The notes under the pieces: generated by a model
Databases searched by the model: none
Told to the model about the DNA's origin: nothing
Seen by the model: the letters and a program-made list of their open reading frames with translations, nothing else
Program-made: the position numbers and the translations under genes
Shown: piece by piece, positions 11,881-20,492 of the stretch
Layout of the letters: every line of letters starts with the position of its first letter
How positions within the stretch are numbered: position 1 is the stretch's first letter
Assembly: GCA_037133055.1 (NCBI GenBank)
Contig: JBAXOY010000042.1
Location: 1 to 24,357, forward strand
DNA length: 24,357 nucleotides
Source: Chlamydiota bacterium
Lineage (GTDB): Bacteria > Auribacterota > Tritonobacteria > UBA1439
Reading direction: 5' to 3'

Positions 11881-11926
11881 TTCACCCAAAGGCCGGGATG
11901 TGTTACTATGCTATAAATAGTAACAC
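11881..11926 (+). promoter_or_regulatory. Sigma70 promoter overlapped by a palindromic NikR-type operator
   Basis: TTCACC(11881)-17-TACTAT(11904) with extended TG. Palindrome GTGTTAC-N13-GTAACAC at 11900-11926 (arms pair over 9 bp). Confidence 0.75.
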
Positions 11927-11957: not shown

Positions 11958-12722
11958 ATCAGGCATTCATTCATCGACCGGTACGCGGACTGTGACGGCC
12001 CGCTTCAGCGGGTCGATCCGCGCGTGAAGCTCATCGCGGCGCTCGTCGCGGTGGTGCTTATCGTCACCACGCCGAACGCGGCCTGGCCGAGCTTCGCCGC
12101 CTATGCCCTCCTCGCGGGGGGCCTGCTCGCCGTTTCCCGCCTCCCCCTGCGGTTCGTGTGCGCGCGGTTGATGGCGGCGGCCCCGTTCGTCATCCTGATC
12201 GCCGGCTTCATCCCGTTCATGGCGGCCGGCGCGCACGCCCCGGGCGCGCCGTGGTTCCACCCGAGTCGCGAGGGTCTCGCCCTTTTCCTGGGCGTCGTCG
12301 TGAAATCCCTCCTCTCGATCGTCTGCCTGGTGATCCTCACGAGCACGACGCGGTTCGACCGCCTGCTCGGGGGGGCGGAGTCGATGGGATGCCCGCGCCT
12401 CGTCGCCATGATCCTCTCGTTTATGTACCGGTACGCGTTTCTCATCACCGACGACCTGATGCGGATGGCGCGGGCGAAGGAGGCGCGGGGGCCGGAGCGG
12501 CGGCCATGGCGGGATCTCGCGGCGCTCTCGTCGATGGTGGGGGTGCTCTTCGTGCGCTCCTACGAGCGGGCGGAGCGGGTCTATCTCGCCATGTGCGCGC
12601 GCGGGTTCGACGGGACGGTCATCCCGCGGCGGCCGCTCGCCCTCGCCCCGCGCGACCTGGCCTGCCTCGCCGCGGCGGTCGCGTGCTTCGCGGCGGGGAG
12701 ATTCGCGGGAGGCATCCGGTGA
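11958..12722 (+). CDS. cbiQ: ECF transporter T component (CbiQ/NikQ)
   Basis: FIDRY...LQRVDPRVK, TT.F..LL, MYRY, LFVRSYERAERVYLAMCARGF. Start placed at the ATC after the GGAGAGGGG RBS; uncertain (see findings). Confidence 0.9.
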   Translation: MRHSFIDRYADCDGPLQRVDPRVKLIAALVAVVLIVTTPNAAWPSFAAYALLAGGLLAVSRLPLRFVCARLMAAAPFVILIAGFIPFMAAGAHAPGAPWFHPSREGLALFLGVVVKSLLSIVCLVILTSTTRFDRLLGGAESMGCPRLVAMILSFMYRYAFLITDDLMRMARAKEARGPERRPWRDLAALSSMVGVLFVRSYERAERVYLAMCARGFDGTVIPRRPLALAPRDLACLAAAVACFAAGRFAGGIR

Positions 12723-13456
12723 GCGCCGAGCCCGCGATCGTGATACGGCGGTTGAGTTTCACCTATCCCGACGGAATCCCGGCGCTCCGCGACGTGTCGC
12801 TCGACGTCGCGCGGGGGGAGACGGTCGGCATCGTCGGCGCGAACGGCGCGGGGAAAAGCACGCTCCTCCTTCACCTGAACGGACTCCTCAGGGGGACGGG
12901 CACGGTGCGCGTCGCGGGGATCGAGGTGGACGGGAACAACCTCCGGGAGGTGAGGCGGGCGGTGGGGCTTGTTTTCCAGGACCCCGAGGACCAGCTCTTC
13001 ACGCCGACGGTGTACGACGACGTGGCGTTCGGCCCGTTGAACCTGCGCACCCCGCTCCACGAGGTGGACGCCCGGGTGAAAAGGGCGCTCGTCCTCGTCG
13101 GCATGGCGGGGTTCGAGGCGAGGAGCGCGCACCACCTGAGCTTCGGCGAGAAGAAGCGGGTCGCGCTCGCGACGGTGCTCTCCTGCGGCCCGGAGATCAT
13201 CGCCCTCGACGAGCCGACCAGCACCCTCGACCCGGCGGGGCGCGAGGGGTTAATCCGCGCCCTCGCGGCGCTCCCGGGGACGAAGCTCATCGCGACGCAC
13301 GATCTGGAGATGGTCCTCGATGTCTGCGGGAGGGCGGTGGTCCTCAGCGGGGGAAGGGTCGCCGCCGACGGGCCCGCGGCGGCGCTGCTCGGGGACAGGG
13401 AGCTCATGGAGCGGAACGGGCTCAGGGTGCCGGTGAGCCTGCGGGCGCGGGGGTGA
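12719..13456 (+). CDS. cbiO: ECF transporter ATPase (CbiO/NikO)
   Basis: GANGAGKST, FQDPEDQLF, LSFGEKKR, LDEPT, ATHD. GTGA overlap with the cbiQ stop. Confidence 0.93.
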   Translation: MSAEPAIVIRRLSFTYPDGIPALRDVSLDVARGETVGIVGANGAGKSTLLLHLNGLLRGTGTVRVAGIEVDGNNLREVRRAVGLVFQDPEDQLFTPTVYDDVAFGPLNLRTPLHEVDARVKRALVLVGMAGFEARSAHHLSFGEKKRVALATVLSCGPEIIALDEPTSTLDPAGREGLIRALAALPGTKLIATHDLEMVLDVCGRAVVLSGGRVAADGPAAALLGDRELMERNGLRVPVSLRARG

Positions 13457-15797: not shown

Positions 15798-15842
15798 TTG
15801 ACGCGCGGGAGAGAAGTGTTACTATTGTGAATATCGTGCCAC
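15798..15842 (+). promoter_or_regulatory. Sigma70 promoter overlapped by a second NikR-type operator
   Basis: TTGACG(15798)-16-TACTAT(15820) with extended TG. GTGTTAC-N13-GTGCCAC at 15816-15842. Confidence 0.72.
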
Positions 15843-15874
15843 TACCATCGCGTGGCATCGCCGGGGAGGAACGC

Positions 15875-16774
15875 ATGGGCCTGCATCGTGTGGTCGCGGT
15901 TGCGCTGTGCGCCGTTGTGGCCGCGCCCATGATCTGCGCGGCGCAGCAGATCGACGACACGGAGCCGAGGGCCGAGGAGGCGGAGGTGGAGATCGGGAAG
16001 GCGGAGGTCCCGGAGGGCGAGAAGCCGCTCTTTATCCTGAACCGTGTTCCCCCGCTCGCAAAGGCGGACGGGGCCCTCGACAAACTCGACGCGCTCCTGC
16101 CGCTCAAATTCGGCGTGGAAAGCCAATTCCTCAGCAACTGGCTTAACGAGGGGGGGAACTGGGCGAAGAACGGTGTGCAGATCATGCAGACCTACTATGC
16201 CGAGTATACGCATGAGTTCGGCAGCGCGAGCGCCGGGGTGGGGGTTTCCTATTTTCAGATCGACACGACCTATCAGGAGGTCCACCCCAGCACGCTGGAG
16301 CGGGATTTCACCGTCTACGCGCCGCTCTCGTGGAAGAAGTTCTCCCTGGAACCGTACTGGACGTATGTCTACGTCGACGGCGCGGAGAACTACAACGAGA
16401 TCGGGAGTGAGTTCAGCATCGACATCCCGCTGAAGCCGACGTTCGCCTGGAACCACGATTTCAGCGTCTATACGGGGACGTACTACGAGTGGTCGATCTC
16501 CCACGACATCGACATCGCCCCGCACGGAGAGCGCCTCTTTGTCTTCACCCCTTCCATGGCGATGGGGATGGACTCGCACAAATACCAGGAGGGGACGACG
16601 CTCACGCATATCGATTGGGGGATCGAGCTGGGGATCCCGGTGATGAAGCATTTCGTGGTGAGCGGGGCGATCCACTTCACGAAGAGCCTGACCCACGCGA
16701 CCTACAGCGAGGAAAATGATGTCTTCGAGGACATCATTCCGTGGGGCGGGCTCAAGCTGACGATGGAGTTCTGA
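15875..16774 (+). CDS. Uncharacterised exported protein, probable outer-membrane beta-barrel
   Basis: GGGGAGG RBS, signal peptide (MGLHRVVAVALCAVVAAPMICAA), aromatic-rich amphipathic strands, and C-terminal beta-signal WGGLKLTMEF ending in Phe. Confidence 0.72.
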   Translation: MGLHRVVAVALCAVVAAPMICAAQQIDDTEPRAEEAEVEIGKAEVPEGEKPLFILNRVPPLAKADGALDKLDALLPLKFGVESQFLSNWLNEGGNWAKNGVQIMQTYYAEYTHEFGSASAGVGVSYFQIDTTYQEVHPSTLERDFTVYAPLSWKKFSLEPYWTYVYVDGAENYNEIGSEFSIDIPLKPTFAWNHDFSVYTGTYYEWSISHDIDIAPHGERLFVFTPSMAMGMDSHKYQEGTTLTHIDWGIELGIPVMKHFVVSGAIHFTKSLTHATYSEENDVFEDIIPWGGLKLTMEF

Positions 16775-16786
16775 GAGGGGAGAAAA

Positions 16787-17422
16787 ATGCACCTGCCGGA
16801 TGGCTTCCTGGCGGTGGGCGTTTGGGCGCCGCTCTGGATGGCGGCGTCCGCCGGGATCGCGGGGTGCGTGAAGGCGGTGCAGCGGTCGCTCTCCGACCGG
16901 GCGGTGCCGCTCATGGGCGTGATGGCGGCGTTCATCTTCGCCGCGCAGATGCTGAACTTCCCCGTGGCGGGGGGGACCTCGGGGCACCTCCTCGGGGGCG
17001 TGCTCGCGGCGGTGCTCCTCGGGCCGTGGGCGGGGGCGCTGGTGATCGCGATCGTCCTCGCGGTCCAGTGCCTCCTCTTCCAGGACGGCGGGTTGACCGC
17101 GCTCGGGGCGAACATCGTGAACATGTCGTTTTTCGGGTCCGTGTGCGGCTACGGGATCTACACCGCGGTGAAGGGAGTGAGCGGGGGGAAGACGCTTGCC
17201 GCGGTGGCGGTCGCGTCGTGGTGCTCGGTGATGTTGGCGAGTACCGCCTGTGCGGTCGAGCTCGCCCTCTCGGGGACCGTGCCCCTCCGCACGGCGCTCC
17301 CCGCGATGGCTGTCGTGCACGCGCTCATCGGGGTCGGCGAGGCGGTGATCACGTGCCTCGTCGTGTCGTGCGTCATGAAGATGAGGCCGGATCTCGTTCC
17401 ATCCAAAGGAGCGTGCGCGTGA
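16787..17422 (+). CDS. cbiM: ECF substrate-binding component CbiM/NikM
   Basis: N-terminal MHLPDGFL, AFIFAAQMLNFP, GTSGHLLGG, QCLLFQDGGLTALGAN, HALIG.GE. Confidence 0.95.
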   Translation: MHLPDGFLAVGVWAPLWMAASAGIAGCVKAVQRSLSDRAVPLMGVMAAFIFAAQMLNFPVAGGTSGHLLGGVLAAVLLGPWAGALVIAIVLAVQCLLFQDGGLTALGANIVNMSFFGSVCGYGIYTAVKGVSGGKTLAAVAVASWCSVMLASTACAVELALSGTVPLRTALPAMAVVHALIGVGEAVITCLVVSCVMKMRPDLVPSKGACA

Positions 17423-17718
17423 TGAAGGTGCGGGATAGCATCATCGGGCTCGGAGCGGCGCTGCTCCTCGCGCTGGCCCTCTCGCCGTTCGCCTCGCCGT
17501 GGCCCGACGGGCTTGAGAAGGTCGCGGAGCGGAAGGGGTTCCTCGCGAAGGGAGAGGGGAAGCCCGCGCTCAGAGCGCCGGTCCCCGATTACGCGTGGCC
17601 GGGCGTAAAGAACGAGGGGCACGCGACGCGGATCGCGGGAGCGGTCGGGACGCTGGTAACCTTCGGCGTCGCGTGGGGCGCCGCGGCGCTCATGCGAAAA
17701 AGCGGGGTCAGACCTTAA
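17422..17718 (+). CDS. PDGLE-domain protein (NikN-like)
   Basis: SPFASPWPDGLEKVAE, AP.PDY, two TM helices. Coupled to the cbiM stop; GTG 17419 is an alternative start. Confidence 0.9.
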   Translation: MKVRDSIIGLGAALLLALALSPFASPWPDGLEKVAERKGFLAKGEGKPALRAPVPDYAWPGVKNEGHATRIAGAVGTLVTFGVAWGAAALMRKSGVRP

Positions 17719-17793
17719 CTATACACTGGGATAGAACTTGAGACAGGCCCGGGTGCGGGTGATGAGCCAGTGTATAGTTAAGGTCTGACCCCG
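17703..17793. repeat. Perfect 27-bp inverted repeat (REP/REPIN-like, GGGGTCA-type end)
   Basis: CGGGGTCAGACCTTAACTATACACTGG (17703-17729) and its exact reverse complement (17767-17793). Contains the stop codons of both convergent genes. Confidence 0.9.
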
Positions 17794-18635
17794 GAGGCTA
17801 CGCGGAGCGCCGCCCGGAGCGACTTGAGGTTCTCCACCATGATCGCGAGGTAGGCGCCGGGGCGGTCGGGGCCGCCCGCGACCGGGTCTATGACGCAGAC
17901 GGGCCTGCGCGTCTCGCGCGCGATCAGGCGCGCCGCCTCGGCTGGGACGCGGGGGCTCACGAGCACCACCTGCGCGTCCGTCTCCTTCACCACGGCGACC
18001 GCCTCCTCCGGCGAGGCCGCCGTGACCGCATCGAGCCCCGCCTCGCGCGCGAAGCGAGTCGACGCCCCGTCGAGCGCCGCGGCCTTCACTCCCCGGTACG
18101 GGTCGAAGGAGCCCTTCATCCTGTCCCGGAGCGCCTCCAGACGGGCCACGCACCGCTCGGCGTTCAACGCGTACCGCTCCCGGCGCGCGGGGTCGATCTT
18201 TCGAAGCGCCCTGCCCAGATTCCCCACTTCCATGATCGTGTCGGAGACGCTCATCCAGATCCACGGCAGGCGCGCATCCTCCTCGCCGGGGCGGGCGATC
18301 CCCTCGGCGGTTTCGACGATCGGGAGTTTCGGGTAGCGGATTGCGGTCTCGTCGAGGGAAAGCTCTATGCCGGCGCCGTGCGCGACGAGCACGTCCGCCC
18401 GGTCGAGCGCGGCGCATGCCCCGGGCGAGGCCATATCGCTGCGCTCCTCGGAGGCGGCGGGCCTGAGGCACGACACCTCGACGCCCGGGATGTTCCAGGC
18501 GACATTCAGCGCCATGAGATAGACGGGATACGAGGCGGTCACGATCCGAAACGGTTTTTCGGTCACGGGCTCCGCGTGGAGGAGGGAGCCCCCGAGGGCG
18601 ATGGTCAGCAGCGCGAGGAGAGGACGCGTCTTCAT
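17778..18635 (-). CDS. ZnuA/TroA-like (cluster A-I) solute-binding protein with degenerate metal site
   Basis: Signal peptide, IVTASYPVY, AD.LV..GAG.E, L..IDP....Y..NA, IDP...Y..IM.ENL. The canonical His motifs are replaced. Confidence 0.78.
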   Translation of the reverse strand: MKTRPLLALLTIALGGSLLHAEPVTEKPFRIVTASYPVYLMALNVAWNIPGVEVSCLRPAASEERSDMASPGACAALDRADVLVAHGAGIELSLDETAIRYPKLPIVETAEGIARPGEEDARLPWIWMSVSDTIMEVGNLGRALRKIDPARRERYALNAERCVARLEALRDRMKGSFDPYRGVKAAALDGASTRFAREAGLDAVTAASPEEAVAVVKETDAQVVLVSPRVPAEAARLIARETRRPVCVIDPVAGGPDRPGAYLAIMVENLKSLRAALRVASGVRP

Positions 18636-18865: not shown

Positions 18866-19035
18866 AGCAGGTGAGGGAAAACGGTGAGAAGCCGCTGCTG
18901 CCCCCGCAACTGTAAGTGGTGAAGCTGGGAAGCGCCGGTCACTGGCGCGGTGGATCGAAGAGCGCGTGAACGCTCGACGGTTGCCGCACCGGGAAGGCAG
19001 GCGCGTCTGACGGTGCCACGAGCCAGGAGACCTCA
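18866..19035 (+). ncRNA. Cobalamin riboswitch
   Basis: AGGGAA..CGGTGAGAAGCCG, GCCCCCGCAACTGTAA (18900-18915), CACTGG...CCGGGAAGG, B12 box GAGCCAGGAGACCT (19020-19033). Confidence 0.93.
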
Positions 19036-19080
19036 GGGGATGACTTCTTCGGGGTGGGAGAAGGCCTTGGGTGTGCCACG

Positions 19081-19114
19081 GCCGGTTCTTCTTTCCAGAA
19101 GAGTCGGTTTTTTT
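19081..19114 (+). terminator. Intrinsic terminator, riboswitch expression platform
   Basis: Stem GCCGGTTCTTCT-TTCC-AGAAGAGTCGGT (with G-U pairs) followed by a T run, between the aptamer and the start codon. Confidence 0.8.
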
Positions 19115-19145
19115 GTGCCGCGGGGAGCACAAAGAGGAGAAAGAG

Positions 19146-20492
19146 ATGAGATTCTTCACTTGCATCACGGCGGCGCTGGCGTGCGCATGCACCGTGGGGG
19201 CGGCCGCGGTCACGGTGTCGGAGGGATTCACGGCGTCGGCGCTCGGCCAGAACTTCATGGGGGGGTTCGACTATCTTCCCAACGGGGACCTGATCGGGAT
19301 GTACGCGGATCCACTGTTTGCCGGGAACTCGTGGATCGGGATCGTCGACGCGAACGGAGACGGCCTCCCGGCGGCCGTGGAGAAGGTGTACGATTTCGGC
19401 CTGCCGGAATGGGCGGGCTTCGTGAAGGTAAGCCCGGATGGCGCGACCGTGGTCTTCTGTGAGAGCTCGAACTACAGGCTCTTCGCCATGGATCTCGATG
19501 ATTATTCTGCGCGGGAGATCGTACCACGGGGAGGGACGTTCGACGGGGCGTTCGACCTTGCGTTTATCGACGACTCCTCGTGCTACGTGAGCGCCAATCC
19601 GGCGTGGGGTATGACGAACGATATCCTGTTTCTCGAGATCGCCTCGGGGCAGCTGAAGAAAGTCGCATCGGTATCTTCGACCTACTCGGGCCCGCTCGCC
19701 GCAGACGATGAGGGGAGCCTCTACTGCGTCGCGGGGAAGGCGCACTACCCGGTGCAGGCGGGAGATTTCACGCTGCTCAAATTCGATGCGGCGAAACTCG
19801 CCGAGGCGATGGAAGGCGGCACGGTCCTGGGGCGGTCGGATGCGGAGGTCGTCAAGGACGGCCTCGATGGCGGCTACGGCCTGGCGTGGCACGGCTCGGG
19901 CGACCTGTTCGTCTCAGACGCGAACCACGGGAAGATCGTCAGGGTCTCGCCGGGCGGAGCGTCGGCGGAATTCGTCTCGCTCCCCGGCGGGGACGGCGAG
20001 GGGTTCAGGGTGATTTCGATCTTCGACGGCCCGGAGCCGTTCTCCGCGGGGGTGAGGAGCGACTGCCGGCTCGCGACGGACTACCTGCCGCTCCCGGGGG
20101 CGGCGACACCCGACATCTACCGCATCTCTTCTCTCCCGCCCCTTGTGAACGCCGTGGTGAGCGCAAAAACTCTCTCTGCGGGTTCGCGCCTCGCCCTCAC
20201 GGTGACGGCGCAGCCGGAGACGGCGCGCTTCGACGCGTACATCGTGTTTTCCGGCCCCGGCGGCATCGCCTACTCGGTGACGGAGAAAGGGCTCCCCGCG
20301 GGCGTGAAGCCATATGCGTCCGCCGTGCCGGAACTCGCGAAGGAGTTCAAGGCGCGGGTTCTCGACATGGTGGTCCCCCCCGCCGCCGAAACGGGAGCGT
20401 GGACCGTCTACGCGGGGCTCATGCCGGCGGGCACGCCGCCGTCGCCCGCGGCGGCCCTTGCCCTCGACACGACAGGGCTCACGGTGCGCTGA
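19146..20492 (+). CDS. Uncharacterised exported protein, probable beta-propeller plus C-terminal Ig-like domain
   Basis: AGAGGAG RBS, signal peptide MRFFTCITAALACACTVGAAA, blade-like repeats (FDYLPNGDL, VSPDG..V, LAADDEGSLY, LAWHGSGDLFVSD). Confidence 0.75.
   Translation: MRFFTCITAALACACTVGAAAVTVSEGFTASALGQNFMGGFDYLPNGDLIGMYADPLFAGNSWIGIVDANGDGLPAAVEKVYDFGLPEWAGFVKVSPDGATVVFCESSNYRLFAMDLDDYSAREIVPRGGTFDGAFDLAFIDDSSCYVSANPAWGMTNDILFLEIASGQLKKVASVSSTYSGPLAADDEGSLYCVAGKAHYPVQAGDFTLLKFDAAKLAEAMEGGTVLGRSDAEVVKDGLDGGYGLAWHGSGDLFVSDANHGKIVRVSPGGASAEFVSLPGGDGEGFRVISIFDGPEPFSAGVRSDCRLATDYLPLPGAATPDIYRISSLPPLVNAVVSAKTLSAGSRLALTVTAQPETARFDAYIVFSGPGGIAYSVTEKGLPAGVKPYASAVPELAKEFKARVLDMVVPPAAETGAWTVYAGLMPAGTPPSPAAALALDTTGLTVR

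Follow-up and report, generated by a model that had tools for sequence, protein, structure and literature searches.

TonB-dependent receptors are 22-stranded barrels with a plug domain. The named outer-membrane importers of nickel are mostly TonB-dependent and include FecA3, FrpB4, CntO, NikH and others (PMC11247825, in the part of the article available), and in Caldithrix NikR-linked receptors are described beside nikMNQO (PMC5317091, likewise in part). A porin route for nickel rests on indirect evidence. HopV and HopW of Helicobacter pylori are NikR-repressed, predicted His-lined beta-barrel porins that were proposed as nickel channels, and NikR targets were derepressed in a hopV knockout, which points indirectly to a lower nickel level in the cell (available part of PMC5385501). 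PcoB is a TonB-independent barrel with an electronegative pore that conducts copper (PDB 7PGE; PMC9210255), MnoP of Bradyrhizobium is cited as a porin of the outer membrane whose role in Mn2+ uptake has been characterised (PMC6011978), and Fur-regulated porins were predicted before feoAB in Geobacter (PMC545781), as far as the available portions of these three papers go.

We analysed a window (the whole stretch of DNA under study, 24,357 nucleotides) in which the gene for a predicted outer-membrane barrel stands at the head of a nikMN operon (Table 1). Like the TonB-dependent nickel receptors, it would occupy the outer-membrane step before a nickel importer, under NikR, and it takes the same place in the operon, but its product has 299 residues and 12 predicted strands and gave no match to PF00593 or PF07715. 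HopV and HopW are Helicobacter-specific Hop proteins, as described in the accessible part of PMC5385501, and showed no homology to the barrel in searches, as opposed to a direct alignment; unlike their genes, the barrel gene shares one operon with ECF-type nikMN. PcoB resembles the barrel protein in size and shape (Z 15.4, rmsd 3.6, 190 aligned residues, 8% identity). No Pfam or PDB sequence match places the protein in the PcoB/CopB family, and PcoB belongs to a copper-defence operon whereas the barrel gene leads what appears to be a starvation-induced uptake operon. MnoP, likened here by description only, would share the working principle with another metal.

On balance we favour the reading that the barrel is a NikR-repressed, passive, TonB-independent and cation-favouring pore which serves nickel uptake and is probably not strictly nickel-selective, a reading drawn from sequence and a structural model. 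The preliminary description of this DNA had suggested an undescribed component. For the protein family this stands, as the open literature searched (subscription journals fell largely outside) yielded no description of a nik operon with a TorF-like barrel; the idea itself has a precedent in HopV and HopW (PMC5385501, in part).

Table 1. Features of the window that bear on the barrel gene and the nik operons
Feature	Position	Strand	Basis
gene for 299-aa TorF/Gcw_chp-related outer-membrane barrel (P0001), ATG to TGA	15875..16774	+	ORF, fold model, profile comparison
ribosome-binding site GGGGAGG	15863..15869	+	5 nt upstream of barrel ATG
predicted signal peptide, about residues 1-23	15875..15943	+	hydropathy; homologue N-termini
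predicted 12-stranded beta-barrel (residues 77-299), terminal Phe	16103..16771	+	AlphaFold2, structural search
signature codons E92, H245, D247, H267, W290, putative cluster at outer lumen mouth	16148..16744	+	hydrophobic alternation
nikM (CbiM/NikM S component, starts MHLPDG)	16787..17422	+	PF01891 E 1.7e-63
nikN (PDGLE domain)	17422..17718	+	PF13190 E 8.7e-18
nikQ (ECF T component), likely ATC start	11958..12722	+	TIGR02454 above cut-off; start comparison
nikO (ECF ATPase)	12719..13456	+	ABC_tran and ECF ATPase models
NikR-type operator GTGTTAC-N13-GTGCCAC	15816..15842		matrix score 26.1 bits; consensus match
second NikR-type operator, perfect GTGTTAC-N13-GTAACAC, before nikQO	11900..11926		29.1 bits, genome's best
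sigma-70-like promoter (TTGACG, 16 nt, TG-extended TACTAT)	15798..15825	+	consensus match only

The barrel protein and its relatives

The open reading frame ends in a Phe codon and stops exactly 12 nt before the nikM ATG, as had been noted previously. The most hydrophobic 13-mer of the protein (residues 6-18, mean 2.67) is followed by an Ala-rich cleavage-like site, and the full-length homologues have hydrophobic N-termini that end near A-Q; the signal-peptide call is a hydropathy estimate. Residues 24-48 contain nine acidic (D/E) and two basic (K/R) residues. Both values agree with the signal peptide and acidic N-terminal linker of the preliminary description. The protein can also still be called unannotated, because searches of Pfam and NCBIfam gave no match at E<=0.1. 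PDB sequences gave no meaningful match (two cellulase rows at E of about 0.07 were ignored), and no further copy of the gene was found in the source genome.

AlphaFold2, run with 24 homologues (mean pLDDT 76.5, pTM 0.71), predicted N-terminal helices followed by 12 strands over residues 77-299. Foldseek ranked OmpG, autotransporter barrels and PcoB at the top, and a wide structural search returned Hbp (Z 16.2), KdgM (Z 15.7, rmsd 2.5, 167 aligned), PcoB (Z 15.4), AIDA-I (Z 15.4) and a COG4313 channel (Z 15.3), matches that are tied within Z 1 and share 7-10% identity. A relative that scores as Gcw_chp was modelled with the same barrel fold (pLDDT 86.3). We regard the outer-membrane barrel as a secure prediction of fold class; the modelled fold in itself does not reveal a function. 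The earlier assignment as a beta-barrel, for which AlphaFold and Foldseek had been proposed as the check, is supported by this model of 12 strands rather than the 22 of a TonB receptor.

In the model the conserved N-terminal helices (residues 53-74), which precede strand 1, could act as a plug for the pore. The protein might then lack an open pore and, as a plugged surface protein, aid uptake indirectly, by binding nickel or its chelate or by anchoring a partner. The top structural match, at Z 16.2, is a helix-filled autotransporter barrel (the model spanned residues 4-299 including the signal peptide, and KdgM lay within 1 of it); 12-stranded barrels include enzymes (OMPLA, Z 12.4; LpxR, Z 12.2), and one Atlas cluster contains 10% MipA. 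We nevertheless consider a plugged protein improbable. The family repeatedly heads operons for small-ion transporters (further ones being amtB, kdp and feoB), the annotated porin family OprB replaces the barrel in the same slot, and across the family the barrel has no conserved passenger or partner gene next to it. With type Va autotransporters the protein has a fold match only; it lacks a Pfam match, and only about 50 residues, where a passenger would lie, separate the signal peptide from the barrel.

Few close homologues were found (25 and 28 proteins), and the named records among the related loci are from Candidatus Auribacterota or unclassified bacteria. Distant matches of the barrel protein include Gcw_chp proteins, and an Atlas cluster with 98% Gcw_chp had a score of 0.97. 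When alignment A1 was compared with A2 (22 distant relatives), hhalign gave a probability of 99.8 (E 1.9e-29) over 217 columns, which is the whole barrel. At E<=0.1, five of the 22 A2 relatives matched Gcw_chp (PF09694) and eight matched TIGR02001 ('TorF family putative porin'); the Pfam Gcw_chp cut-off was passed by P0033, P0038, P0042 and one L078 protein. The barrel protein itself was not above the curated TIGR02001/PF09694 cut-off and had no match to either at E<=0.1. Because of the hhalign result, the A2 members that score in the family and the shared predicted fold, we place the protein, by sequence comparison, as a divergent relative of TorF/Gcw_chp below the family cut-off. A profile comparison with TIGR02001 had been suggested beforehand, and it did uncover this distant homology. 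MipA/OmpV (PF06629) gave no match to the barrel protein, and 2/22 A2 members matched it weakly (best E 0.0025). In a quick tree of 55 rows the barrel clade was separate, on a long branch.

Five proteins were set aside as fragments (P0023, P0027, P0029, P0030, P0047), as was P0036 (620 aa, unrelated domains); P0026, truncated or frameshifted, was kept in A1 and left out of trees. P0032 was also set aside as chimera-like: a succinate dehydrogenase cytochrome subunit is joined to a barrel C-terminus, likely an assembly chimera.

The Y-x-x-R-G motif is a hallmark of the TorF/Gcw_chp family. It follows strand 1 and is near-invariant in A2, and the barrel protein reads W-L-N-E-G at this site; position 92 is Glu in 19/19 nik-linked, kdp-linked and sister-clade rows and Arg in 10/10 amtB-linked rows. 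The protein is, as predicted, a small secreted barrel with an aromatic end, like TorF/Gcw_chp members, to which it adds H245, D247 and H267, a longer N-terminal helical segment and a NikR-type operator. Relatives lead amtB-glnK operons. NlmA of H. seropedicae is presumably a TIGR02001 protein. In that organism the gene order is nlmA-glnK-amtB, as in these relatives (PMC3023670, in the part available). TorF has been named a porin of the TMAO-reductase system in a gene table (PMC5955497) and was a proteomic hit in one study (PMC13303613).

The nik operon and its NikR-type operators

M, N, Q and O of a NikMNQO set are all present in the window, in two units at least 2.4 kb apart with one operator each. 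The NikR matrix was trained on eight sites, all from other genomes. When the source genome (2.99 Mb) was scanned with it, the two best sites were those of the window and the third reached 13.4 bits. The deltaproteobacterial NikR consensus is GTGTTAC-N13/14-GTAACAC, and the GTGCCAC arm also occurs in one published NikR site (PMC545781, in part). The -10 box of the barrel promoter sits within the left arm of the barrel operator, a layout which, as far as sequence can tell, would suit a repressor site; sigma-70-like promoter sites of this kind numbered 3 in 7.5 kb against 0.5 expected. The barrel gene had been described as the first after an operator, and indeed its promoter is overlapped by the second-best NikR-type site genome-wide. 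NikR and BamA are also encoded in the source genome, as is the large subunit of a [NiFe] hydrogenase, which carries both CxxC motifs.

One published criterion assigns an ECF transporter to nickel when it is controlled by a NikR operator and not by a B12 riboswitch (PMC5317091, available part). The nik genes of the window have NikR-type operators, the genome has a nikR, and the only cobalamin riboswitch of the window (18874-19033) lies downstream of nikN, ahead of another gene, for which reason nickel is favoured over cobalt. Neither the window nor the 19 and 14 loci scanned showed a cobalamin riboswitch ahead of the barrel; in these loci riboswitches were downstream of nikN, and the cobalt reading was rejected on these grounds.

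Several side observations were made along the same stretch. The start of nikQ appears non-standard at one aligned position, which reads ATC in the window (11958-11960) and in L002 (about 3869), ATT in L008 (about 2127) and GTG in L003 (about 2598); in the window a purine-rich ribosome site lies upstream of the ATC. An inverted repeat at 17704-17792 has perfect 26-bp arms around a 37-nt loop; we take it to be REP- or MITE-like, and it has related palindromes on eight other contigs. It spans the stop codons of nikN and of a convergent gene for a ZnuA-family periplasmic binding protein (17778-18635, reverse strand), so both proteins end in SGVRP. Only the closest relatives (L009-L011, L022) have the ZnuA-type gene next to nikMN. 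The stretch 18874-20492 comprises the cobalamin riboswitch and then the gene for a secreted protein of 473 aa, whose sole match, a weak one, is propeller-like. A riboswitch also follows nikN in L002, L003, L007, L008 and L013, and the 473-aa-type gene was seen in L003, L007 and L013. The 473-aa protein is a candidate for B12 binding or uptake in this genome, where no TonB receptor was detected.

We surveyed gene neighbourhoods in the source phylum and among close homologues, and 22 close loci were reduced to 13 distinct ones at 93% DNA identity. The next gene is nikM at 10 of the 13. The three exceptions are L006, where the contig ends just after the gene, L039, which has the operator with no nikM alongside, and L042, where the barrel gene precedes kdpA. 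At seven of the 13 loci nikR lies directly upstream of the barrel, and an operator with at least 14/20 arm matches was found at 11, with a weak one at another and none found in L042. The barrel directly precedes the single nikM in 8/8 family genomes, all eight of which have a match to the NiFe large subunit (both motifs were checked in the source genome). The linkage to nikM, for which a neighbourhood survey had been proposed, is supported and tight, though the counts of loci and genomes are not independent because the family genomes are kin.

Since all nik-linked copies come from this one family of kin, and copies move between operons (to kdp in L042, to an operator only in L039), the barrel gene could merely ride along in the NikR operon as a passenger and play no part in how the cell handles nickel. 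We judge this to be very improbable. The gene is kept before nikM in every family genome although the nikM genes are of two divergent types (37-45% and 66-85% identical to that of the window), the operator is retained where nikR is not adjacent (window, L004, L009), and other porins have taken the same slot independently.

Lumen residues and the kdp-linked copy

Residues were assigned to the lumen side from hydrophobic alternation only, rather than from coordinates, and its resolution is poor in strands 118-130 and 156-167. E92, H245, D247, H267 and W290 are invariant in the 12 nik-linked, one kdp-linked and six sister-clade rows, and the strand order suggests that they lie on neighbouring strands at the outer mouth. 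This signature is absent from 10/10 amtB-linked rows, in which position 92 is Arg and position 247 is His in two of the ten.

The four His-containing segments singled out in the preliminary description (SHDIDIAPHG, DSHKY, THID, THATYSEEND) were all found in the protein. H245 of THID is present in 12/12 nik-linked rows and is predicted to face the lumen; H235 (11/12) and H274 (9/12) lie in loops. H210 (11/12), predicted to point outward, also occurs in 7/10 amtB-linked relatives, and H217 occurs in this protein only. H267, which lies outside the four segments, is present in 12/12 nik-linked rows and again predicted to face the lumen. The full set of His segments was discarded as a nickel signature, with H217 unique to this protein and H210 family-wide.

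The four residues E92, H245, D247 and H267 could form the site of a selective channel for Ni2+ (or for Ni/Co/Fe/Mn), in which case the kdp-linked copy would be a recent move whose function has changed or been lost. Their invariance in 12/12 nik-linked and 6/6 sister rows and absence from 10/10 amtB-linked rows speaks for such a site. The kdp-linked copy has the longest end branch of the 13 close rows (0.72) and predicted lumen changes at positions 106, 179, 193 and 207; among the structural matches, PcoB conducts Cu2+ and holds one such ion at a pair of acidic residues (PMC9210255, in part). Against selectivity, however, the kdp-linked copy retains all four residues, H245 is replaced in P0019, P0024, P0025 and P0046, a distant feoAB-linked member has Arg at position 92, and unrelated porins occupy the same slot. 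We consider a selective channel rather unlikely, though the foremost of the alternatives. The predicted lumen positions are acidic in all groups (10-15 D/E in nik, 8-13 in amt), and an acidic lumen in every group, including the amtB-linked one, points to a general cation preference.

The kdp-linked copy (L042) is 58% identical to the barrel protein and leads kdpABCD. A careful 18-row tree placed it inside the nik clade, with three starred nodes ahead of it, and a test against a nik-only clade was marginal (p-AU 0.042). Its gene lies between nupC and kdpA (L042 5990-7260, genome G007), with a second copy of the T-rich kdp upstream element. The same element precedes kdpA in two relatives that have no barrel there, G005 has nupC-kdpA without a barrel, and the barrel is found at one of the three kdp loci of the family. 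We assume that the T-rich element resembles a KdpE box. Judged by sequence, L042 is a clean case of regulatory re-wiring, and it suggests that the barrel is probably not nickel-specific.

Of the sister-clade copies, that at L043 6053-9908 comes after dtxR-feoA and feoB, and that at L016 5421-6774 after a DtxR-type gene; two of the six sister-clade rows thus stand beside a DtxR-type gene, and the neighbours of the others are not telling. A further family member lies beside feoAB (L077 4198-7294). The members at L043, L016 and L077 are candidate entry pores for iron or manganese. The preliminary description had called the barrel a 'dedicated' nickel porin. This was not borne out, as the 58%-identical copy before kdpABCD keeps the signature without a NikR site and genes for DtxR-type regulators and feoB accompany the sister clade; we regard selectivity as doubtful.

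Porins before nikM across the phylum

A survey of 79 genomes of the phylum gave 33 nikM-type matches; 30 loci were examined, 23 of them outside the barrel family. A different small barrel was found directly before nikM at 4/23 of these outside loci, from three porin families unrelated to this one: OprB (G014, G023), a Phenol_MetA_deg COG4313-type barrel (G039) and an LbtU/OprO-like barrel (G045). All four loci (L114, L115, L116, L117) have a NikR-type operator, with nikR between operator and barrel in three. That unrelated porins were recruited independently is our strongest reason to think that the position before nikM may serve outer-membrane permeation. At the other 19/23 loci no porin was found directly upstream of nikM (within 1.5 kb), the upstream position being taken by nikR, NikK-type or unrelated genes, or by no gene, so a nikM-adjacent porin is optional rather than generally required. 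Upstream ORFs were Pfam-scanned at 21 positions and otherwise judged from translations. In G067 a protein with DUF1214 and a pentameric ligand-gated ion-channel domain is encoded directly upstream of nikM (L101 2002-3372 and L118 2002-4314, both on the reverse strand).

No TonB-dependent receptor barrel or plug was found in the source genome (92% complete), which has two TonB_C genes. TonB receptors, one or two each and 612-829 aa in size, were present in 5/8 family genomes, and no operator of at least 11 bits was found near them in the flanking stretch scanned. Downstream of the nik operon in G007 lie a tonB gene and a receptor gene; the receptors of G002 and G005 are each followed by a double ATPase of their own.

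Under the reading that we favour, the NikR-repressed cation-favouring pore, low nickel would cause NikR to leave both operators and so allow synthesis of the barrel, NikMN and NikQO. Ni2+ would then diffuse to the periplasm through the acidic pore, in which a His/Asp/Glu site at the outer mouth would favour divalent metals, and from there the NikMNQO ECF transporter would bring it into the cell for hydrogenase. Nickel specificity would come mainly from regulation and NikM rather than from the pore. We infer repression by Ni-loaded NikR, an acidic, metal-favouring lumen and transport itself. A bolder and more tentative proposal, which we think rather unlikely, is that the Arg-to-Glu switch and the His-Asp-His lumen site turned this divergent TorF/Gcw_chp branch into selective divalent-metal channels (Ni with NikR; Fe or Mn with DtxR-type regulators).

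The barrel is a small, testable candidate for a nickel pore, with named residues, and the open literature searched hardly mentions its family, TorF/Gcw_chp (one paper under the family names). Among the paralogues the control is by nickel, potassium, iron/manganese or ammonium, a ready-made series in which ion selection by the pore can be set against selection by the regulator. If the bolder proposal is true, a TonB-independent nickel channel would for the first time be defined in a nik operon, the TorF/Gcw_chp family would have its first substrate, and at least four unrelated porin families would have been recruited to the same operon slot in this phylum.
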